A stretch of DNA of 64,000 nt from the IMG/VR virus record IMGVR_UViG_3300047400_000090, positions 1 through 64,000 of that record. One strand, given 5' to 3'. The notes beneath the pieces are model-generated. The model was not told where the DNA came from. It saw nothing but the letters and a program-made list of their open reading frames with translations, and made no database searches. Positions 3,176 through 13,151 of this stretch are shown in pieces; the first letter of the stretch is position 1, and every line of letters starts with the position of its first letter. Source of the DNA: a virus. Its lineage: Duplodnaviria > Caudoviricetes. The position numbers and the translations under genes are program-made.

Positions 3176-4543
3176 TTAATCTCCTGTCCTACTCACAAAC
3201 CTAAAGGCATCTCCCTGATAGGTAACCTTTACCACCCCCTGCGGTCCACGGCGTTGCTTTGCAATAATTAACTCGTCACCTGGAGGAGGGATATTAGCCT
3301 TTTTCCAGTTTATACTAGGCCGATGGGTAAAGACAACCAAATCTGCCGCCTGCTCAATTTCGCCGGACTCCCTAAGGTCGCTCAACTGTGGCCGATTATC
3401 CCCACCGATGCGCTGCTCTACGGCACGACTTAATTGAACCGCCGCCATAATAATAGCCTTGAACTCCATCGACAACTCCTTGAGTCCACGGGCGATAGTA
3501 GACACCTCCTGGAAGCGATTGTCTTTATTGTTGGGAGACTTCATTAACTGCAGGTAGTCTACACAAACCATCCCCACCTGCCCAAACTTAGCCTTGGTCC
3601 TAGCTAACTCGCTACGAAGTTGGAGAAGCGTCTTCCCACCTGAGTCTGAGACCCGCAAGTTCCTGGGGGCTGACATCTTAATGTACTGCTTAATTTTCTC
3701 CATCTCGGTAGGAGAAACCGTGTTGTGTTGGATGTCGTGTGATCTTACTAGCCCCTGCTGACAGAGGATTCTTCTCCAAATATCCCAAGCCTCCATCTCA
3801 TGAGAAAAGAACGATACCGGGATGGTCTCTGCAGCCTTAAAGGCACACTGAATAAGGTAGGCAGTCTTACCACCTCCAGGACGAGCGCCGATGCAAATTA
3901 ACTGCCCCTCTCCGAAGCTGGCTACAAGCTCGTTTAGCTCTGGAGTGGGGCTCTTTACCCCGGAATTCTCAGGGCTAAGGATGGACTCAATTGTCCCAGC
4001 CCTTGAGACCATTTGGTCGATATCAAAGAGGGTATCGTTCTTGATCGCCGTACCAGATAGCCGCTTAATAGCCTCTTCGGCTTGGCCGATTAACTCGTCA
4101 CTACTCTTTCCCTCAGAGATAGAGGAATCGATTCTCTTGGCGAATCCCAGAATCTGCCGAATTACGTGCAGGTCGTGGATGGTATGGCACGCCGCCTCGA
4201 CGTCTAATCCCTCGTCTTGCTCCCTTAGGACATTATGAAGCGCCTCATCGTAGTCTTCCGGCTCAATCTCCAGATTGCTTGATCGTTTAGCGTTAGCCAG
4301 GATTACGTCTTTGTCGGGGAATCGTCCCTCCTTGTGGGCCTTCTCAATTAGGCCGTAGAAGACGCTCAGGCGTGGATCCGAGAAGGATTCAGCCTGAAGA
4401 TTAGAGGTTACGGTCTGAAGGCATGATGGACGCCGAAAGCAGGCTGCAATGAGCTTATTTTCTAACGGTTTAGAGGATGTGCGTACTGATCCATCGCCGA
4501 GGGATTCAATAGTATCAGCCTCAATTGCTCTCTTCTTAGGCAT
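3176..4543 (-). CDS. dnaB: replicative DNA helicase DnaB
   Basis: GARPGGGKT Walker A, FSHEM, VDYLQLM, QLSRAVE, DLRESGEIEQAAD, IAKQRRGP. Confidence 0.95.
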   Translation of the reverse strand: MPKKRAIEADTIESLGDGSVRTSSKPLENKLIAACFRRPSCLQTVTSNLQAESFSDPRLSVFYGLIEKAHKEGRFPDKDVILANAKRSSNLEIEPEDYDEALHNVLREQDEGLDVEAACHTIHDLHVIRQILGFAKRIDSSISEGKSSDELIGQAEEAIKRLSGTAIKNDTLFDIDQMVSRAGTIESILSPENSGVKSPTPELNELVASFGEGQLICIGARPGGGKTAYLIQCAFKAAETIPVSFFSHEMEAWDIWRRILCQQGLVRSHDIQHNTVSPTEMEKIKQYIKMSAPRNLRVSDSGGKTLLQLRSELARTKAKFGQVGMVCVDYLQLMKSPNNKDNRFQEVSTIARGLKELSMEFKAIIMAAVQLSRAVEQRIGGDNRPQLSDLRESGEIEQAADLVVFTHRPSINWKKANIPPPGDELIIAKQRRGPQGVVKVTYQGDAFRFVSRTGD

Positions 4544-5156
4544 TGACTAACTTAAGAAATTCATCCTTCCCTCTTTGGCGCACAAAGTCATCTGGATCGA
4601 TCCCTACAGGCAGCCTGACGTAACTAATGGGGTGTTTCTCTTCAGTTAAGCCCTCTACGGCGCGTTGGGCAGCGATTACACCGGCGTTATCCCCATCGTA
4701 GCAGACAATAACTCGCTCACTGAATCTCTTAAGCAATCTTAATTGATGCTTTGAGAAAGATGTTCCGCAGGTCGCTACCACATTCCTAATCCCTGCCTGC
4801 CATAGGGCCATAACATCAAAATAGCCCTCGCAGGCAATAGCTACCCCTGACTTCAGGATGTAGTCCCTAGACTTATCTAGTGCGTAAAGTTGCCGTGATT
4901 TCCTGTAAATTTGTGATTCTGATGAGTTTATCCACTTTGGCTTGTCGTCGCCAAGGGTCCTGGCACCAAAGCCGGTCAAGTCTCCATCGACGCTATAGCA
5001 GGGGATCGTAAGCCTGCCACTAAAAGGTCCAGTAGTTTCACAGAACCCGACCCCAAACTCCTTGGCCGTGGAGGCAGTAATTCCTCGCCCAGACAGGTAC
5101 TCCAGTGCTGTGGTGTTGACTGATTCGTAGGCTTTTTGTTCGTCGTAGAGTGTCAT
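4536..5156 (-). CDS. dnaG: DNA primase catalytic core/Toprim domain, lacking the Zn-finger
   Basis: YLSGRGI, GRLTIP, KWINS, CEGYFDV, YDGDNAG, DPDDF. Confidence 0.9.
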   Translation of the reverse strand: MTLYDEQKAYESVNTTALEYLSGRGITASTAKEFGVGFCETTGPFSGRLTIPCYSVDGDLTGFGARTLGDDKPKWINSSESQIYRKSRQLYALDKSRDYILKSGVAIACEGYFDVMALWQAGIRNVVATCGTSFSKHQLRLLKRFSERVIVCYDGDNAGVIAAQRAVEGLTEEKHPISYVRLPVGIDPDDFVRQRGKDEFLKLVNA

Positions 5157-5335
5157 AAGTACTCATTAAACCTCGCAACGTAAGGAGGCGACTTTAGCCG
5201 TAGAAAGTCGCTTTCTCCACACAGCGTAGTCATAACCTTTCTACCTTGACTAGCCCCACTCCAACCGCCGAACCCGCCACTGGCTCCTAGGTTACGCCAC
5301 CGTGGATTTAAACATGCCCACAAAAGATTGGTCAT
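5153..5335 (-). CDS. array-1 short ORF (MTNLLWACLNPRW)
   Basis: ATGA overlaps on both sides; paralog of the neighbouring ORF. Confidence 0.55.
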   Translation of the reverse strand: MTNLLWACLNPRWRNLGASGGFGGWSGASQGRKVMTTLCGESDFLRLKSPPYVARFNEYL

Positions 5336-5460
5336 GGCTTGTACCTCTGGATATATGGAGCCTTTGTTATCAGATACTTAGCGTAGCAGAGTTTAGTGAG
5401 GTGGGGACCCATAAAAGTGAGACTCCACCTAGGGTTAAAACAAGCCCATAACAAAGTCAT
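5332..5460 (-). CDS. array-1 short ORF (MTLLWACFNPRW)
   Basis: Internal ATG of track ORF 5332..5544; shares LLWAC.NPRW with neighbour. Confidence 0.5.
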   Translation of the reverse strand: MTLLWACFNPRWSLTFMGPHLTKLCYAKYLITKAPYIQRYKP

Positions 5461-5632
5461 AATTCTCTTTAATATCCAATTGGCTATATCTAGCAAAACT
5501 TGCGCCTTCCGTAATGTCGTCGCAACAGCAGTTGACAACTCCAAGACCAGAAACCTTGTTAGCGTTAAGCCTACAACTAGACAAGTATTTCCAACTAGTC
5601 GCCGAGGCTGCCAGCATCATCCATGGCCTCAT
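5435..5632 (-). CDS. array-1 short ORF (MRPWMML)
   Basis: ATGA overlap; M-R-x-W start. Confidence 0.55.
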   Translation of the reverse strand: MRPWMMLAASATSWKYLSSCRLNANKVSGLGVVNCCCDDITEGASFARYSQLDIKENYDFVMGLF

Positions 5633-5811
5633 CGCGTCACCCTGGTGGACATTCCATAAATCGTAATCTGATCAAGCCTAGCCTGCAAGCCATCAAGAAT
5701 AACAGAGCAACCACGACCACCTAGGCCATTAACCAGACTACTGTTAAACTTAGCTGCCGACCAGTATTGTGAGCGAAACACAGATGGGCACAGCGTCATC
5801 CAGCACTTCAT
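5629..5811 (-). CDS. array-1 short ORF (MKCWMTLCPS)
   Basis: ATGA overlap; MKxW..L.PS motif. Confidence 0.6.
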   Translation of the reverse strand: MKCWMTLCPSVFRSQYWSAAKFNSSLVNGLGGRGCSVILDGLQARLDQITIYGMSTRVTR

Positions 5812-6038
5812 CGGCGTACTAGCATCAGCAACTTAGTCTTAGGGAAGTCTCCTTGATTAATGGAAGATTCAAGCATCGGTATCCTAGAGTAGGATATTGG
5901 TAGCATTCTTATTCCCGCCATAAAACACCCTAAAACACCAAGGATATTGCCATTAACATAAGACTGCCGCACGTGCGGAATTGTCTGACAATAGAGTGTT
6001 CGATTGAACGACGGATCCAGTGTAAGCCAAGATTTCAT
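5808..6038 (-). CDS. array-1 short ORF (MKSWLTLDPS)
   Basis: ATGA overlap; MKxW..L.PS motif. Confidence 0.6.
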   Translation of the reverse strand: MKSWLTLDPSFNRTLYCQTIPHVRQSYVNGNILGVLGCFMAGIRMLPISYSRIPMLESSINQGDFPKTKLLMLVRR

Positions 6039-6247
6039 CGCTTCACCAAGCGTAATAATCCAGTAATCACCGTAGCTCCAGTGATGTCTGAATCAAGCGT
6101 TCTGTAAAATGACATGCGGAGACTTGCACAACAAGTGCTACTAGTGAAACCAAAATCTCGCAGGAGCTTAAACATACCAACATAATTCAGGGGAGAATAG
6201 TAGGTAGATGCATGAAACGAAGGAGTTATCATTAGCCATGATTTCAT
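6035..6247 (-). CDS. array-1 short ORF (MKSWLMITPS)
   Basis: MKxW...PS motif. Confidence 0.6.
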   Translation of the reverse strand: MKSWLMITPSFHASTYYSPLNYVGMFKLLRDFGFTSSTCCASLRMSFYRTLDSDITGATVITGLLRLVKR

Positions 6248-6251
6248 GCGT

Positions 6252-6449
6252 CTATCCCCTTACCGGGAAATCGTAACAAGCCAAGAAACACATTTTGCTT
6301 CTATGTAAAACAGCAGTAGGATCAGACGCAAAGCTAGTCATCGATCCATCCTTTAATAAATTACGCCTAACCAACTTGGAATCGAATCTGCAGTACGAGG
6401 CATAACGATTCTTGTATAAGGACGGCAGAAGATAATTCCACACCTTCAT
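6252..6449 (-). CDS. array-1 short ORF (MKVWNYLLPS)
   Basis: ATGA overlap with the CHC2 gene; MKxW...PS motif. Confidence 0.6.
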   Translation of the reverse strand: MKVWNYLLPSLYKNRYASYCRFDSKLVRRNLLKDGSMTSFASDPTAVLHRSKMCFLACYDFPVRG

Positions 6450-7108
6450 GCACTCGCCCCCTTTAGCCTACTAACCATTTCTAGGCGGTGTCCCTTGAGG
6501 CACCATGCAGGGTTCTTCAGTCCCTCCCAGGACTTCCTCGTCCTGAAGTACTCGGTCAGTTCCTTGTCATTGATTTCATCGAGTTGATCCATGGCAGCCT
6601 CTCTACGGGTAGCTTCAGTATAAGCCAACATGGCCTGAGACTCCAACTCCTCGGTAAAGGTCTCCATCAACTGCCGACAGGCGACACGGTAAATCTTCCA
6701 CTGGGCATTAGTATAGATCACCAAGTTCTCCCTCAGTTCCTTCTTCCACGCCCTAACAGCCTTCCTCTCCACCGCCAGCCGCTTACTACGCGCCTCATAG
6801 ACCTCCCTCTGGGATGGAGTCATGAAGTCTGTACTAACCCCAGCAATCACGGCAGCCTGCTTCAGCGCCTCGCTAAAGCTAACCCCCATAATCCCCTGGA
6901 GGTAGGTAATACAATCTCCCTTGGCGTTGCAACTATAGCACTTGTACCGTCCCCAGGAGTCATCTACACAGAAACTGGGGTTCTTCTCCTGGTGAAACGG
7001 ACACAGCCCAACCCATCGGTCTTTGTTGCTAGTTCTCCTCAGTGAGACCTGCTGTGAGACTAACTGGGAAAGAACGATGTTTGACTTGATTAGGTCAATA
7101 TCGACCAT
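6446..7108 (-). CDS. CHC2 zinc-finger protein (DnaG N-terminal domain) with helical C-terminal extension
   Basis: GLCPFHQEKNPSF...YKCYSCNAKGD. Confidence 0.9.
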   Translation of the reverse strand: MVDIDLIKSNIVLSQLVSQQVSLRRTSNKDRWVGLCPFHQEKNPSFCVDDSWGRYKCYSCNAKGDCITYLQGIMGVSFSEALKQAAVIAGVSTDFMTPSQREVYEARSKRLAVERKAVRAWKKELRENLVIYTNAQWKIYRVACRQLMETFTEELESQAMLAYTEATRREAAMDQLDEINDKELTEYFRTRKSWEGLKNPAWCLKGHRLEMVSRLKGASA

Positions 7109-8349
7109 TACAGCCTCTCAATTAAGTACCGCTGCGCCTCAGCCATCGACTTGCCGCAGCAGTCCTGCAGGTAATCCGAATCAACCATCTTGCTTCCGTT
7201 ATTGATTCTGAACCATAACTCTGTTAATTGCAACAGGTTAGCAGGCTTAAACTCAAGGCGATAGTCGATGCGGCCAGGGCGGATGAGGGCCGGATCCAGC
7301 TTATCAATGCGATTAGTAGTCATAAATAGCAAGGTGCCCTCAATGGACCCCATGCCATCTAAGCAGTTAAGAAGCGCAGATAGCGAAACACCCTTGCGCT
7401 CTGGGGATAATTCCCGGTCAGGGGCTACACAGTCTGCGTCTTCGATTAGGATAATTGACCCCTTGCGAATCTCGCTAAAGAGGTACTCCAGGCGGTCGTC
7501 ATCCATGCCACTGCTTCCTAGGCTCAGGACGTACATGTCCATCTTAAGCTCACCAGCCAATGCCGCAATCAGGCTGCTTTTGCCGGAGCCAGCCACCCCA
7601 TGGAAGAGGTACCCACGGTGCCATGGGATACCTAGTTGCTTATACCACTCGCTGGAGTTAATAAACTTCTTGGCGTCTTCCAGGAGGGCATCCTTTTCTC
7701 CCTGGGGAAGAATTACGCTATCCATGGCCCTAGGGCTGACTTCCTTGTAGGATCTCCAGTTCCCGTAGACCGAGTTATAGATTTTGATGCTAGAGCGAAC
7801 CTTGAAAGAAGCCATGGAGGCATCTCGGATGATCTGCTTAGCCTTCTCGGTGGAACGAGTAAAGACTTTAACAGAGATAGTCTCAAGCATCCTTCCACCG
7901 CCAGAGACCTTAGAGGCGGAGCCCATTTCGTCTTTATGGCGGTCAATTCTGATTACTTGTCCGTTGACATAAACCCAATGAATTCCTATAGATGGAGAGA
8001 AAATAACAGTTGGTGGCTCTTTCGCAGCAGGGTCATGATCAGGGATAGCGTCAATGATTGAAGTCACTCCAGTCCTGGAGTTCCCGAAGTTATCCACAGT
8101 GGTAGCCTCAAGCCGCCTAGAACGGCTAGAGTATTCCAACTTCGACATCCACAGGGATAGACTATCAAACAGCGGGTCTGAGTTTCTGACGTGGATATCA
8201 ACACTGATTCTACGGACCAGCCAATAGAAAATCTCCGATGGGATCTTGCGTGCTAGGGCCATTACGGCACCGGCAGCCATGACAATTAGGCCGCCAGAAA
8301 CAAACTGGTTCTGAAGCTGATCGGTTAAGGAGCCAAGAAGAGGAATCAT
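7108..8349 (-). CDS. BCS1-like AAA+ ATPase with N-terminal transmembrane segment
   Basis: GYLFHGVAGSGKSS, LIEDADC, LSALLNCLDG, MTTN, LDPALIRPGRID; hydrophobic GGLIVMAAGAVMALA. Confidence 0.85.
   Translation of the reverse strand: MIPLLGSLTDQLQNQFVSGGLIVMAAGAVMALARKIPSEIFYWLVRRISVDIHVRNSDPLFDSLSLWMSKLEYSSRSRRLEATTVDNFGNSRTGVTSIIDAIPDHDPAAKEPPTVIFSPSIGIHWVYVNGQVIRIDRHKDEMGSASKVSGGGRMLETISVKVFTRSTEKAKQIIRDASMASFKVRSSIKIYNSVYGNWRSYKEVSPRAMDSVILPQGEKDALLEDAKKFINSSEWYKQLGIPWHRGYLFHGVAGSGKSSLIAALAGELKMDMYVLSLGSSGMDDDRLEYLFSEIRKGSIILIEDADCVAPDRELSPERKGVSLSALLNCLDGMGSIEGTLLFMTTNRIDKLDPALIRPGRIDYRLEFKPANLLQLTELWFRINNGSKMVDSDYLQDCCGKSMAEAQRYLIERL
8062..8085. promoter_or_regulatory. dispersed palindrome copy
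   Basis: AGTCACTCCAG-TC-CTGGAGTTCCC, inside BCS1-like gene. Confidence 0.75.
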
Positions 8350-8633
8350 TGAGGAGTGTTGGACTTAAGCGTAGATGGGTGATTCTTTTGATCCATGTAG
8401 TTCTGTAGTGCGCCAAACAACTGAACCGCCTGGACTTTATCCTGCAGGCAAATGGCGTTAGTATCTCCAGCCCATGAGATGTCGTTCCTGATACAGACTA
8501 AGTCACCATGCTCCTCTAGGTAGTATTCCTTAATCCGATGAGAATCGTACACAAACGGAGCAAAGAAGGCCAGTACTAGAACCACCAACAAAGCCAAGAT
8601 TGTCGTGTCTAGTTTCTTTTCGTAATCAGTCAT
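8346..8633 (-). CDS. small membrane protein
   Basis: ILALLVVLVLAFFAPFVY transmembrane segment. Confidence 0.6.
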   Translation of the reverse strand: MTDYEKKLDTTILALLVVLVLAFFAPFVYDSHRIKEYYLEEHGDLVCIRNDISWAGDTNAICLQDKVQAVQLFGALQNYMDQKNHPSTLKSNTPQ

Positions 8634-8943
8634 TCAACAACTCTCTTTCAATAATCTCAAGTGCCTTAGCACGGGCCGCCAGAAGCGCATTAAGAGAGTC
8701 AGTTCCAGGATCCAGATCAGTCCATTCGCGGTTATGTCCAGCCAGTAAAACATCCCTTAGGCGGCGGATAACCGCGCTCCCTGGGCGCGTACTAGAAATT
8801 CCAGACAGGTGCGCTCTATCCTGGTTGGCACTGTTGGCGGCACTAACCAAATTAGAGAAACTAATCCTACCTACAACATTAACCACAGGTTCCTTCTCCA
8901 TTAGTCGGATTGCCCTCCTCGTCTTCCCACTCACTAACGTCAT
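8626..8943 (-). CDS. hypothetical protein
   Basis: Operon position. Confidence 0.5.
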   Translation of the reverse strand: MTLVSGKTRRAIRLMEKEPVVNVVGRISFSNLVSAANSANQDRAHLSGISSTRPGSAVIRRLRDVLLAGHNREWTDLDPGTDSLNALLAARAKALEIIERELLND

Positions 8944-9100
8944 CGATCAGACTCAAGTCTCCACCACAACGCTGGTAAGACAGGCCACCATCGACAAAGA
9001 TCTTACCACATGAGCACCGAACGAAGTCGTGCCGGTGTTTCGAGACAATTACATCTCCGCAAGCCTTACATTTCAAAGCATTTAAGACTAACTTAGCCAT
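8879..9100 (-). CDS. small Zn-binding phage protein
   Basis: CKACGD...HRHDFVRCSCG...VDGG pattern common in phages. Confidence 0.7.
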   Translation of the reverse strand: MAKLVLNALKCKACGDVIVSKHRHDFVRCSCGKIFVDGGLSYQRCGGDLSLIDDVSEWEDEEGNPTNGEGTCG

Positions 9101-10466
9101 TCTTTCTCGCCTCCTCTACGTACTTTCGTGAATCTTCCGAGTAAAAGAACTCGTCCTCGGCTGGTGTGATCCCATCATAGAACTCAAAGTCATCAAACGT
9201 AATCCACTTATCCACCGCTTTGGCCGCCTTGAGAACCGGAAGGAATTCTGAGAGCCTAAAACTATCGACGTAGTGCTTTCTGACCATCTCTGCCAGATCT
9301 AACTGCCCGGTCCTGCGGTAGTGTTGTGAAAGCTCATCACGAAGCATCCCTTTCCGGGTCTTAATCTTCCTCATCCTCGGGGTTAGGTTGCCTTCTGCGT
9401 CTACAAACTGACTAGCAGACACTGGAGTAGTGTTTTTTGCGGCCTGGGACGACGCTGGCTCGATTTGCTGCCCTTGGACGTCCGTAACCGCGTGAGATTC
9501 GCTATTGCTCGTTTCTGGCTCGTTTTCGCACTCCAGGACTGGAGCGATTTGGTCGGCCAGGGAGATGTAGTCAGGAATCGACCTAACAATCCCCCTAGGA
9601 TCGACCTTAATTCCGCTAGAGAGGGTATCCTTGATGGCCGCCGAGGCCGCCGAGGTAATAACTTCTACTTCGTACTGTCTTTCCAAGTTAGAGACGGCGT
9701 CAAGAATTAGACCATCGATAGACTTATCACTCTTCCCTAGAAGGCTAGTAGCTTTCTTAGATTCTGGAACCGAGACCAGTAGTCTGGCAATTCTTCGGGA
9801 GGTAGTCAAGCCCATAGAGTCATCATACCCAACTTCACCTCCGTTATCAACCTCAGATCCTAATCCACAATCTTGATCCGCTATCAAGCTCCCTTGCCCA
9901 TGGCCTGCTACCTTTATTAACTTTTCTACATTATTAACGAAGGTTAATGGTTCTTCTAAGTTCTTCTTTGTTCTTCGTTCTTCTATGCGTGTTGAATTGA
10001 CCACGGTAGCGTGTTGATTTCCACACGGTGGCGTGTTGATTTCCACACGGTGGCGTGTTGAATTGACCACGGTTGACCGTGTTGAATTGACCACGGTTTG
10101 AGTTAATAGGATGTTATTGGCGGTGACTTGTAGTGCGTTCCAATTGACCTTTCCGTTGCCTATTTGTCTATCTACTTCTTTAGATATCTCCTCCATGATT
10201 GGAAGGATTGTCACAAACAGTGGGGCCCCATTCTTGCAGGTCTTGTGGATTAGGCCACGTTTTTCTAGGCTGTTAATGGAGTTCCTGATTGCCTCAGTTG
10301 ATACCCCAAATAAGGCGCTGGAAGCCTCCGTCCTGCGTACATTCCCGCTACCTCCTGGTAGGTTCTTTCTTAGCCAAGAGAGTACTAGCGCATCTCCCCT
10401 ATTCCCCTGGCAGGCAATCATACAGTCGGCAAAGGTTTGCTCAAACCACATCTGATTATCTCCCAT
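9093..10466 (-). CDS. replication initiator-like protein (N-terminal HTH, internal iteron-encoded repeats)
   Basis: GVSTEAIRNSINSLEKRGLI winged-HTH pattern; repeated TVVNSTR; upstream of primase/helicase as for lambda O. Confidence 0.65.
   Translation of the reverse strand: MGDNQMWFEQTFADCMIACQGNRGDALVLSWLRKNLPGGSGNVRRTEASSALFGVSTEAIRNSINSLEKRGLIHKTCKNGAPLFVTILPIMEEISKEVDRQIGNGKVNWNALQVTANNILLTQTVVNSTRSTVVNSTRHRVEINTPPCGNQHATVVNSTRIEERRTKKNLEEPLTFVNNVEKLIKVAGHGQGSLIADQDCGLGSEVDNGGEVGYDDSMGLTTSRRIARLLVSVPESKKATSLLGKSDKSIDGLILDAVSNLERQYEVEVITSAASAAIKDTLSSGIKVDPRGIVRSIPDYISLADQIAPVLECENEPETSNSESHAVTDVQGQQIEPASSQAAKNTTPVSASQFVDAEGNLTPRMRKIKTRKGMLRDELSQHYRRTGQLDLAEMVRKHYVDSFRLSEFLPVLKAAKAVDKWITFDDFEFYDGITPAEDEFFYSEDSRKYVEEARKNG
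9526..9549. promoter_or_regulatory. dispersed palindrome copy
   Basis: TCGCACTCCAG-GA-CTGGAGCGATT, inside initiator gene. Confidence 0.75.
9988..10097. repeat. five ~20-22 bp direct repeats (iterons), putative replication origin
   Basis: CGTGTTGAATTGACCACGGT x3 (9988, 10054, 10078) and CGTGTTGATTTCCACACGGTGG x2 (10010, 10032); adjacent T-rich tract ~9925-9985. Confidence 0.8.
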
Positions 10467-10748: not shown

Positions 10749-10824
10749 TGGTACGCTAGCTAGGCTTCGAACCTAGATTCCATCCTTAGGAGTGATGTGT
10801 CCTATCCATTTGAACGACTGGCGC
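10749..10824 (-). tRNA. tRNA-Arg (CCU)
   Basis: Cloverleaf GCGCCAG...CTAGCGT, anticodon loop CT-CCT-AA, TTCGAA T-loop, encoded CCA. Confidence 0.85.
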
Positions 10825-10826
10825 AC

Positions 10827-10902
10827 TGGTATCCCCATCAGGAATCGAACCTGAATTCCCGTCTTAGAAGGGCGGTGCTCTATCCGATTGAGCTATAGGG
10901 AC
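10827..10902 (-). tRNA. tRNA-Arg (UCU)
   Basis: GTCCCTA...TGGGGAT, TAGCTCAATCGGATAGAGC D-arm, loop CT-TCT-AA, TTCGATT, encoded CCA. Confidence 0.9.
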
Positions 10903-10906
10903 AACT

Positions 10907-12013
10907 CTACTGAACTACGCTAACTGCAACAAAAGAAAGGTCTGGATTAAATCTAAGCGCCATCCCTGACAACCCTCTCTGCTGCCCCTTGACCTTGATC
11001 AGCCCTTGATGACCTACGGCGGCCTGCAGCGTAAAGCTAGCCAAGTACTGCCCCATGGCAGGGATGGTTACATTATAGAAGCCGATTTGATTGCCATTCT
11101 CGTCAAAGTATGTCATCAGGACAGACTGATCGTAATTGAGCGAGTTACTAATGGCAAACCCAGTCGTAGCCCCTCCAGTGGAGTCATAGAAGATAGATAG
11201 ATTATCGGACAGTGCCGTACTTCCTCCAATGGACGAAACCTTGCTACCGGTGCCGTTCTGATTGAAGTAGAAAGCCTGTACGCTCACAGGCGGACCTATA
11301 AATGGCAAAACAAGCGCCGTGCCAACCACTGTGTTCTGATTAGACAAGTCGCTGATAACAATTGAGTTAGTTCCATTACCGAAAGTGTTGGCGTAGAACG
11401 AGCTTCCTGTTCTTCCATCGGCTAGCTTAACGGTAAGTTGGCGGCCCTGGGGGTCATAAAACTGCACCAGAGACGTAGACGGAACCTGGGAGGGGTTGAT
11501 GAACTGCAGGGTAGTTACCCACTGCTTCCCTGTGGCGATGTGCGGGATGGCAACTGAGCCACTAATTGGAAGATTGTATGATCGATTGTCTGTAACCTGT
11601 AGAAAAACAAAGCTACTAACAGTTAACCCAGTGCCCTGATCCAGGATTCCGATGGGGACCACGTAACTGCTAATGTCGAGCTTAGATGGATCCACGGTAA
11701 TGTACACACTGGCGGTCTGACTGGTATTCAGCGGGATTGATCGAGTGGTTAGGCTATTAGGGCCGAAGATAGTGTTGGTGCCAAAGGCTGAGTTGGTAAA
11801 TGATCCGGTGTTATCGGTAACGCTGCCGACTTGGATTTGGAAGACCTTAATCCCAGTGGTCTGATTGGTGACCGAGATGGGTGTCTGGATTGTCTGTAGG
11901 CCACCAAATTTATCGACCTGTGCCGTAATTTGGTTAGGAGTTACGGTAAAGCTGTAGGATTGGGCGAAAAGGCCCATGGTAGTCGCTAGGGCGAGTAGTG
12001 TTTTCTTAATCAT
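10907..12013 (-). CDS. exported beta-rich protein with signal peptide, resembling Acidobacteriota exported proteins
   Basis: MIKKTLLALATTMGLFAQ signal; IPHIATG..W.TTLQFINP motif recalled from Bryobacteraceae proteins (unverified). Confidence 0.6.
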   Translation of the reverse strand: MIKKTLLALATTMGLFAQSYSFTVTPNQITAQVDKFGGLQTIQTPISVTNQTTGIKVFQIQVGSVTDNTGSFTNSAFGTNTIFGPNSLTTRSIPLNTSQTASVYITVDPSKLDISSYVVPIGILDQGTGLTVSSFVFLQVTDNRSYNLPISGSVAIPHIATGKQWVTTLQFINPSQVPSTSLVQFYDPQGRQLTVKLADGRTGSSFYANTFGNGTNSIVISDLSNQNTVVGTALVLPFIGPPVSVQAFYFNQNGTGSKVSSIGGSTALSDNLSIFYDSTGGATTGFAISNSLNYDQSVLMTYFDENGNQIGFYNVTIPAMGQYLASFTLQAAVGHQGLIKVKGQQRGLSGMALRFNPDLSFVAVSVVQ

Positions 12014-12128: not shown

Positions 12129-12157
12129 ATTATAGCCACCGATTCACGGATTGTCAA
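12129..12157 (-). promoter_or_regulatory. sigma70 consensus promoter
   Basis: TTGACA-17bp-TATAAT on the minus strand. Confidence 0.85.
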
Positions 12158-13151
12158 CTGACATCAGTAACTTGCCGCCCTGAACCGAGATGTATGCCTG
12201 CTTCTTCTTGGATAACTTGCCTGCGTTTACTAGTCGGGCCATGGGAAGCGTGATGGACTGGTGGATAAGTCGCTTAATCGGCCTAGCGCCGTACTCTTTG
12301 CTGAATCCGTTATCTATAAGATAATCAACAACTTCCTGATCGTAACTAATCTCCCAGGCCCGATCCTCATGGTTAGTCATTACAAGGTCTTGTACGGCCT
12401 GAATTTCGTTCTCTACAATCATCCCAAGGTTGTCCCTGGAGAGGTCATTGTAGGTAATAATTTCATCCAGTCGATTAATGAACTCTGGCAGTAGGGTCTT
12501 CTTGGCGGCTCCTGTGCCGACATTGCCCATTCCTGCAGAGGTAGTTGGCTTAGAGTAGGCAGAGAACCCGAAACTGGGGTCACTAGCCTGCTTTAGCTCC
12601 TTGGCCCCCAGATTAGAGGTTAGGAAGATTATGGTGTCCTTAAAAGGAACCTTGCTGGCATCGCCCAGCGTTAACTGGGCTTTATCAAAGACGCCAAGTA
12701 GCACGTTTTGAAGGGAGGTGGCAGCCTTCTCGATTTCATCGAAAACGATAATCGCCAGAGAAGAATGTCCTGACCGTGTCTCGTTGATCGTCTTGGCAGA
12801 CAGCAGTGAGGGAGTTTCGCGGTGGCCTAAGTATCCTGCGGGGCTGCCTAAAACCCTAGCAACCTCGTGCTCATTTCTCATCTCTCCACAGTCAATCCGG
12901 GTTAGGCTAGTGGAGGATCCATGGAGGCACTCCGCCAGGACCTCGGCAGTCTTGGTCTTGCCGCAGCCAGTCTTCCCTAGGAGAAGGAATACCCCCACTG
13001 GGCGGGTACTAGGGCACAGTTGAGCCTGATATACCTCAATGTACGGGACGATTCGCTCTAGGGCCGCATCCTGGCCAATAAGGAGTTCCTTGGATCGACT
13101 CAGGAGGTTGGAGTAGCCTACTTCATTTGACTGCCGCTTAGCTGCGCTCAT
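12144..13151 (-). CDS. ClpA/ClpB-like AAA+ ATPase, D2 module only
   Basis: LGKTGCGKT, VLGSPAGYLGH, FDEIEKA, FLTSNLG, PEFINRLD, YGARPIKR. Confidence 0.9.
   Translation of the reverse strand: MSAAKRQSNEVGYSNLLSRSKELLIGQDAALERIVPYIEVYQAQLCPSTRPVGVFLLLGKTGCGKTKTAEVLAECLHGSSTSLTRIDCGEMRNEHEVARVLGSPAGYLGHRETPSLLSAKTINETRSGHSSLAIIVFDEIEKAATSLQNVLLGVFDKAQLTLGDASKVPFKDTIIFLTSNLGAKELKQASDPSFGFSAYSKPTTSAGMGNVGTGAAKKTLLPEFINRLDEIITYNDLSRDNLGMIVENEIQAVQDLVMTNHEDRAWEISYDQEVVDYLIDNGFSKEYGARPIKRLIHQSITLPMARLVNAGKLSKKKQAYISVQGGKLLMSVDNP

Follow-up and report, generated by a model that had tools for sequence, protein, structure and literature searches.

A DnaG-type primase encoded by two genes, with seven chained micro-genes in the variable slot between them, in a Caudoviricetes phage

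The uncultured virus of IMG/VR record IMGVR_UViG_3300047400_000090 (Duplodnaviria; Caudoviricetes) encodes its DnaG-type primase in two genes, and an array of seven small open reading frames (micro-ORFs A to G) lies between them. We analyzed a window of 64,000 nucleotides (nt), the first 64 kb of this 86,007-bp record, for which completeness is estimated at 85%; positions are those of the window, and the primase genes, the array, and the helicase gene are all on the minus strand. We interpret the locus as a member of an old clade of two-polypeptide primases, in which a variable slot between the subunit genes is here filled by seven translated, chained accessory micro-genes. We give this reading a probability of roughly 0.6. 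A preliminary description of this DNA had reported a CHC2 zinc finger gene and a Toprim gene separated by seven micro-ORFs that overlap almost without gaps, and both the gene identities and the ORF coordinates bear this out.

The first primase subunit (220 amino acids [aa]; 6446..7108) matches the Pfam family Zn_ribbon_DnaG (PF01807; E 1.5e-24) over residues 4-94 and provides the zinc-binding domain (ZBD). Its zinc ligands (C36, H39, C57, and C60) are invariant across 24 sequences. The AlphaFold2 (AF2) model of this protein has a predicted local distance difference test score (pLDDT) of 89, and Foldseek matched its N-terminal part to 2au3 and to 1d0q, the zinc-binding domain of the B. stearothermophilus primase (template modeling [TM] score on the target, 0.80). 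The second subunit (206 aa; 4536..5156) matches Toprim_2 (Pfam E 3e-24) and, in two stretches, DNAG_N (7e-20); it is an RNA-polymerase core composed of a shortened DNAG_N subdomain and Toprim. Twelve homologues all retain the Toprim glutamate E110 and the DxD residues D154 and D156. This protein terminates about 15 residues past the Toprim domain, and no C-terminal helicase-binding domain could be recognized in it. The ZBD and Toprim genes are separated by 1.29 kb, and the two domains do not occur in a single polypeptide.

In the first subunit, the Zn ribbon is followed by a helical tail of 125 aa (residues 95-220; window positions 6449-6826) that is conserved in the split clade and specific to it. 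In the AF2 model, helices at residues 98-149, 153-178, 181-194, and 207-219 form a long helical hairpin plus two helices, and the tail alignment (A3) contains the motifs W27, YTN, W43, YR, and NPxW. Only three full-length relatives of the tail were present among 1.84 billion representatives. Foldseek returned no convincing PDB match for it, and its sequence matches in the PDB were spurious hits to short pentatricopeptide (PPR) repeats. The conservation and helical structure of the tail, combined with a catalytic subunit that has no recognizable helicase-binding domain, suggest that the tail may dock subunit 1 onto its partner or onto DnaB and so might substitute for such a domain.

Loci of the split clade were reached by alignment queries, while single-protein queries reached none. 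Querying with aligned Toprim homologues yielded 63 viral loci, and a profile built from the ZBD tail yielded four from metagenomes; a search of genome contigs matched only distant cellular DnaG. The closest relative, P0002, has 57% identity to the Toprim protein and comes from a contig of 102 kb. In each of nine relatives, the ZBD (213-228 aa; 41-48% identical) and Toprim (213-225 aa; 44-51% identical) are encoded by different genes, and DnaB comes next. The space separating the two primase genes (the slot) ranges in these relatives from 5 nt to a 1-kb insert. It is 5 nt long and free of cargo in L069, contains a single conserved gene of 73 aa, with no relationship to the micro-ORFs, in five loci (L003, L004, L005, L006, and L067), and contains a 335-aa AAA_2 ATPase gene in the remaining three (L007, L068, and L066). 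DnaB comes after Toprim in every relative, directly in most cases; in L068, a NUMOD3 gene is inserted ahead of it. In every relative, the start of Toprim also adjoins or overlaps the gene before it (across a gap of 5 nt in L069 and by 32 to 35 nt in the others) and, as in the window, is not preceded by a well-placed Shine-Dalgarno sequence.

These loci bear directly on the origin of the split. The preliminary description had raised the possibility that the array inserted into a gene that tolerated fission. An array landing in the linker, and thereby splitting an ancestral single-chain DnaG in this lineage, would agree with the fused ZBD-Toprim genes of many distant viral relatives and with a break that falls at the natural boundary between the ZBD and the RNA-polymerase domain (RPD). 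However, all members of the clade share the split, even those with a Toprim identity of 44%, and among them are one that is cargo free and others with unrelated cargo. A relative with adjacent split genes and no array, which the preliminary description had proposed as a check, was indeed found (L069). Furthermore, tblastn of the micro-ORFs against all fetched relatives detected no homologue of the array. Because all nine relatives are split while their slots are empty or differently filled, fission predates the array, which is later cargo. Thus, we consider fission by insertion extremely unlikely; the array appears to be cargo in a permissive slot between the subunit genes and not the cause of their separation.

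In a quick maximum-likelihood analysis based on the Toprim region, run without mycobacteriophage L5, the window and eight adjacent-split loci group together as one clade (Shimodaira-Hasegawa-like approximate likelihood ratio test [SH-aLRT] support, 96). L069 is nested among the loci with the 73-aa gene. A second clade (SH-aLRT 99) is made up of a further 16 loci with Toprim only, and three of four records from it encode a stand-alone Zn-ribbon ORF (200-228 aa) ∼20-24 kb away from the Toprim gene. Fused forms lie elsewhere in the tree; they are present in many viral relatives at greater distance and in the cultured cyanophages S-CRES1 and S-CBS2. The PHROGs database contains stand-alone ZBD families labeled "DNA primase," and many ZBD proteins of 105-260 aa were among the top 150 representatives. 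Given the second clade, with its genes ∼20 kb apart, the gp58/gp57 pair of L5, and the PHROGs families, fission is an old event that has recurred among phages and has been annotated before. The preliminary description had also allowed that the two genes might prove to be independent proteins in relatives; this is what is observed in the nine relatives, the second clade, and L5. Our literature search found no paper directly on a "split primase," and the precedent is the L5 annotation.

Some relatives differ in ways that are worth recording separately. In L004 (9300-10060), the DnaB gene has an in-frame insert of ∼237 aa directly past the P-loop (GARPATGK/AQPL...VTHN/TALL, with slashes at the insert boundaries); the insert ends in HN with a Thr immediately after it, as inteins typically do. 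In L068 (8047-8811), Toprim and DnaB are separated by a gene of 254 aa that carries NUMOD3 motifs (Pfam E 4.5e-10) and is similar to homing endonuclease genes; the near-identical L007 lacks it. The AAA_2 ATPase in the slot of L007, L068, and L066 has a homologue in the window (12144-13151; 335 aa; 30% identity, E 5e-28), which indicates that the same gene sits elsewhere in this phage.

In the order of transcription, the slot of the window contains micro-ORFs A (65 aa, MKVWNYLLPS...; 6252..6449), B (70 aa, MKSWLMITPS...; 6035..6247), C (76 aa, MKSWLTLDPS...; 5808..6038), D (60 aa, MKCWMTLCPS...; 5629..5811), E (65 aa, MRPWMMLAAS..., or MKPWMMLSAS in other strains; 5435..5632), F (42 aa from its ATG, MTLLWACFNPRW...; 5332..5460), and G (60 aa, MTNLLWACLNPRW...; 5153..5335). 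F may alternatively start with the TTG at 5544, whose longer frame is likewise open. Four-nucleotide ATGA stop/start overlaps are found at six of the eight junctions (ZBD/A, B/C, C/D, D/E, F/G, and G/Toprim), while the remaining two consist of a 4-nt gap (A/B) and a 26-nt overlap (E/F). Shine-Dalgarno-like sequences precede A (AAGGGGG), B (AAGGGGA), E, and G. The Toprim ATG overlaps the stop codon of G and has no well-spaced Shine-Dalgarno sequence before it. As a chain, the seven ORFs occupy 99.2% of this 1,303-nt region, compared with 70% and five members for the best of 3,000 dinucleotide-preserving shuffles and 20% for the antisense strand. At the DNA level, the units align only across their first ∼30 nt, and Tandem Repeats Finder reported a single 19-nt, two-copy repeat in the array. 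No tRNA gene (ARAGORN) and no Rfam family at gathering score were detected in it.

The shared motifs of the preliminary description (MKxW...PS in four ORFs and LLWAC.NPRW in two) were confirmed as MKxW....PS in A to D and LLWAC[FL]NPRW in F and G. Across A to E, the conserved residues are M1, K2, W4, L7, P9, S10, and Y16, and the remainder has diverged (27-36% identity). Among the copies that keep K2, P9, S10, and Y16, the codons differ at the third position only (K2, AAG/AAA; P9, CCG/CCT/CCG/CCA; S10, TCC/TCG/TCG/TCT/TCG; Y16, TAT/TAC). F and G, which are paralogues over their full length (E 6e-7), likewise differ only at the third codon position of the conserved A, N, P, and R across LLWAC[FL]NPRW. 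The annotated frame was the best of six for all seven micro-ORFs. From these data, we conclude that translation of the micro-ORFs is very probable and that selection at the amino-acid level acts on at least their N-terminal motifs.

Strain variation is consistent with this interpretation. The exact micro-proteins recur on 25-34 contigs (34 for A, 30 for B, and 32 for G), and strain variants retain length and frame. Variants P0019, P0023, P0025-P0031, and P0039 come from contigs of 35,928, 52,398, and 96,954 nt, and a search of viral contigs with P0019 gave no match. The C variant is 86% identical and of equal length, the D variants all have 60 aa and show 93-100% identity (at most four residues are changed), and a G variant differs at one of 60 residues (98% identical). 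The E variants are ∼88% identical, with all eight differences (of 65 residues) in the N-terminal half and in mosaic combinations. Divergence of the micro-ORFs is thus uneven, with C (86%) and E (∼88%) less conserved than D (97%) and G (98%), in a variant cluster whose ZBD is 98.6% identical. We note that three E variants (P0025, P0026, and P0027) mix window-like and variant-like segments while their C-terminal 31 aa are identical, and that this invariant part of E overlaps the long TTG-started frame of F. The mosaic variants and the invariant C terminus may reflect recombination between strains or, possibly, a constraint from two reading frames.

The encoded micro-proteins are basic (pI 9.7-10 in six of seven), enriched in aromatic residues and Cys, and poor in Glu (1.1%, compared with 6.8% in long genes). 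Similar ORFs occur elsewhere in the same genome, where roughly 20 more units of this class, with a matching N-terminal signature, are found at two other sites. Genome-wide, 23 of 572 ATG-started ORFs of 38-110 aa begin with M[KR]x[WYF][ILMVN], and all but one of these (22/23) fall in arrays: five in the array described here (array 1), three at 23.4-24.4 kb, and 14 at 43-47 kb. The arrays of this phage are alike in strand, in ATGA chaining, in their basic, aromatic-rich ORFs of 50-90 aa with an M-K-x-[WYF]-[ILM] start, and in having no relatives, but only array 1 lies within an essential two-subunit enzyme operon. A RiPP (ribosomally synthesized and posttranslationally modified peptide) precursor array was considered and rejected, as no Radical_SAM or YcaO protein was found in the 86-kb record and the neighbors are replication proteins and AAA ATPases.

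Several observations weigh against accessory genes of this kind in the slot. The codon log-likelihood of the micro-ORFs is ∼0, versus 0.28 ± 0.11 in long genes, and G occupies the first codon position at a frequency of 0.22, versus 0.35 in long genes, which is atypical for genes of this phage. There was no credible Pfam or PHROG match for any micro-ORF, and the A-E profile, run against 5.8 billion proteins, matched only this phage species and its strain variants. For C, no fold was predicted: the AF2 model (13 sequences) had a pLDDT of 44.5 and no secondary structure, and the ESM Atlas entry had a pLDDT of 0.44 and no neighbors. The link between arrays also amounts to ∼5 N-terminal residues, with K/R at position 2 partly imposed by the ATGA overlap, and the A-E profile retrieved only self matches from the six frames of the whole phage (next best E 0.35).

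The atypical codon statistics and the lack of fold and homologues, together with lower GC content and a shifted AT skew in 5250-6500, could instead indicate that the stretch does not code for protein, being a replication origin, an RNA element, or decayed DNA, and that the ORFs are incidental. We judge this very unlikely. The chain statistic exceeds all 3,000 shuffles, conserved residues differ at third codon positions only, and strain variants keep their frames. The array gave no Rfam or tRNA match and has the 19-nt, two-copy repeat as its sole tandem repeat, while a better origin candidate, a 22-nt unit repeated five times, exists elsewhere (9987-10097). The micro-ORFs are fast-evolving orphans and are restricted to this lineage.

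A further possibility concerns the role of the chain in expression. The preliminary description suggested that translation of the primase core and of DnaB may depend on ribosomes reinitiating through the micro-ORFs, making the array a tunable relay. In its full form, this explanation holds that the array, as a relay or attenuator, sets the number of ribosomes reaching Toprim and DnaB through serial termination and reinitiation and so tunes subunit stoichiometry, with the peptides as by-products. It is favored by the six ATGA junctions, by the Toprim ATG that overlaps the G stop without a well-spaced Shine-Dalgarno sequence, by a Toprim start that adjoins or overlaps the preceding gene in every relative as well, and by the atypical composition and absent predicted fold of the peptides. 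On the other hand, amino-acid motifs are kept with synonymous codon variation, which argues that the peptides are under selection and that the array is more than a ribosome conduit. Relatives manage with no, one, or different intervening genes, and the genes of the other clade lie ∼20 kb apart. In addition, the same class of micro-ORF forms arrays in unrelated contexts of the genome, and the Shine-Dalgarno-like sites before A, B, E, and G would permit fresh initiation within the chain. We therefore regard a dedicated relay as rather unlikely. Passage of ribosomes to Toprim and DnaB fits the anatomy of the locus, but it would be ordinary translational coupling.

The explanation that we favor, accessory cargo in a slot between old subunit genes, can be outlined as follows. 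In the clade of this phage, the primase would long have consisted of a Zn-ribbon subunit with a helical tail and a Toprim subunit without a helicase-binding domain. A leftward replication operon comprising the initiator-like gene, ZBD, Toprim, and DnaB would allow both subunits to be co-expressed. The ZBD/Toprim junction would serve as a permissive slot, the contents of which turn over among lineages while translation keeps flowing. Here, two small paralogue families (A to E and F to G) probably expanded in the slot by local tandem duplication. The ATGA overlaps may hand ribosomes from gene to gene by reinitiation, and because ribosomes would be passed on in this way, the cargo would leave Toprim and DnaB coupled to upstream translation. 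The micro-proteins themselves are most likely accessory proteins that act on the host and not parts of the primase.

A more specific function for the micro-proteins is suggested by the internal proteins of T4. T4 capsid targeting determinants are residues 4 and 7 (PMC9026906), and the internal proteins of T-even phages are diverse and basic, with only the targeting tag in common (PMC3012670). The M-K-x-aromatic-x-x-aliphatic start of the micro-ORFs could by analogy be a capsid-targeting propeptide, with diverse basic micro-proteins packaged in the head and injected with the DNA. T4 IPIII and IPII both begin MKTYQEFIAE (read from NC_000866), residue 4 of the micro-ORFs is W/Y/F and residue 7 mostly L/I, and the pI range given above is in keeping with this idea. 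The tag on 22 micro-ORFs in three arrays might then load a large, rapidly diversifying repertoire into the virion, with the primase slot as one expression site of several, although we hold this extension to be doubtful. The likeness spans only ∼4 residues, of which K2 is partly imposed by the ATGA overlap. No I/L-x-E processing motif is present at positions 8-10, no unit has Glu at position 10, and no Peptidase_S78 prohead protease was found in the record. Array 1 also lies in a replication operon and not among head genes. We thus consider capsid targeting unlikely. The micro-proteins and the T4 internal proteins share small size, diversity, basic character, and a short M-K-x-aromatic N-terminal tag, and this is a resemblance only, given that the micro-ORFs have no cleavage motif and a different genomic context.

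Within the window, the leftward gene order on the minus strand is a helix-turn-helix (HTH) initiator-like gene (9093-10466), three small genes, a BCS1-like AAA ATPase gene, the Zn-ribbon gene, the array, Toprim, and DnaB. The DnaB-type replicative helicase (3176..4543; Pfam DnaB_C, E 6.9e-68) overlaps the Toprim gene by 8 nt. The BCS1-like AAA ATPase (7108..8349; minus strand; Pfam BCS1_N, 2e-23, and AAA, 3e-20) is directly upstream of the ZBD gene, and the two overlap by 1 nt, the last A of the TAA stop being the A of the ZBD ATG (TAATG). This gene is absent at that position in the relatives, where the initiator-like gene adjoins the ZBD gene. The 7108-9100 region as a whole contains four genes that are extra relative to the relatives (73, 105, and 95 aa and the BCS1-like ATPase). 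With these four genes upstream and the array downstream, both junctions flanking the ZBD gene have acquired cargo. On the coding strand, neither a sigma-70-like promoter nor an intrinsic-terminator-like site was found from 9761 to 3918, so a single long transcript is the simplest reading, and we infer that the replication genes and the array are co-transcribed.

Two features farther upstream are of separate interest. The HTH initiator-like gene itself contains the repeats at 9987-10097 (five tandem copies of the 22-nt unit, with 85% matches), which encode a repeated TVVNSTR peptide. These repeats look iteron-like and mark a candidate replication origin within the initiator gene, by analogy with lambda O. 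Two neighboring tRNA-Arg genes (anticodons CCT and TCT; 10749-10902, minus strand) sit between the replication module and a gene for a 368-aa protein (10907-12013).

The split clade represents a natural experiment in which Zn-ribbon and catalytic domains have worked as separate chains over long evolutionary time. Its members, with zero, one, or seven intervening genes or a large ATPase gene, are open to biochemical comparison. The junction between two probably co-translated subunit genes is also a recurrent landing pad for accessory genes, and it adjoins other mobile-element traffic in the module (the putative DnaB intein of L004 and the putative NUMOD3 endonuclease gene of L068). Finally, the array adds seven members under amino-acid constraint to the orphan micro-proteins of this phage and thus bears on the origin and expression of phage "dark matter" genes.

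Compared with canonical DnaG and the primase domain of T7 gp4, the enzyme has the same Zn-ribbon and Toprim domains and the same invariant residues. It differs from them in that each of these domains has a chain of its own, no helicase-binding domain is recognizable in the catalytic subunit, and no structural match was obtained for the ZBD tail. In both DnaG and gp4, one subunit can reportedly provide the ZBD that serves the RNA-polymerase domain of a different subunit, and this action in trans would make a two-chain enzyme mechanistically plausible. The closest known arrangement is that of the cultured Cluster A mycobacteriophage L5, in which gp58 has a Zn ribbon only, gp57 has Toprim only, and both are annotated as DNA primase. 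As in the window, the Zn_ribbon_DnaG-only gene of L5 is upstream of the Toprim-only gene on the same strand, with the break at the ZBD/RPD boundary. The L5 genes, however, are 1 nt apart and encode 130 and 152 aa, whereas here the subunit genes are separated by 1.29 kb with seven micro-genes, and the ZBD subunit has the 125-aa helical tail. The split primase itself was therefore already known; what is new here is the variable cargo slot between the primase genes and its filling by seven constrained orphan micro-genes.

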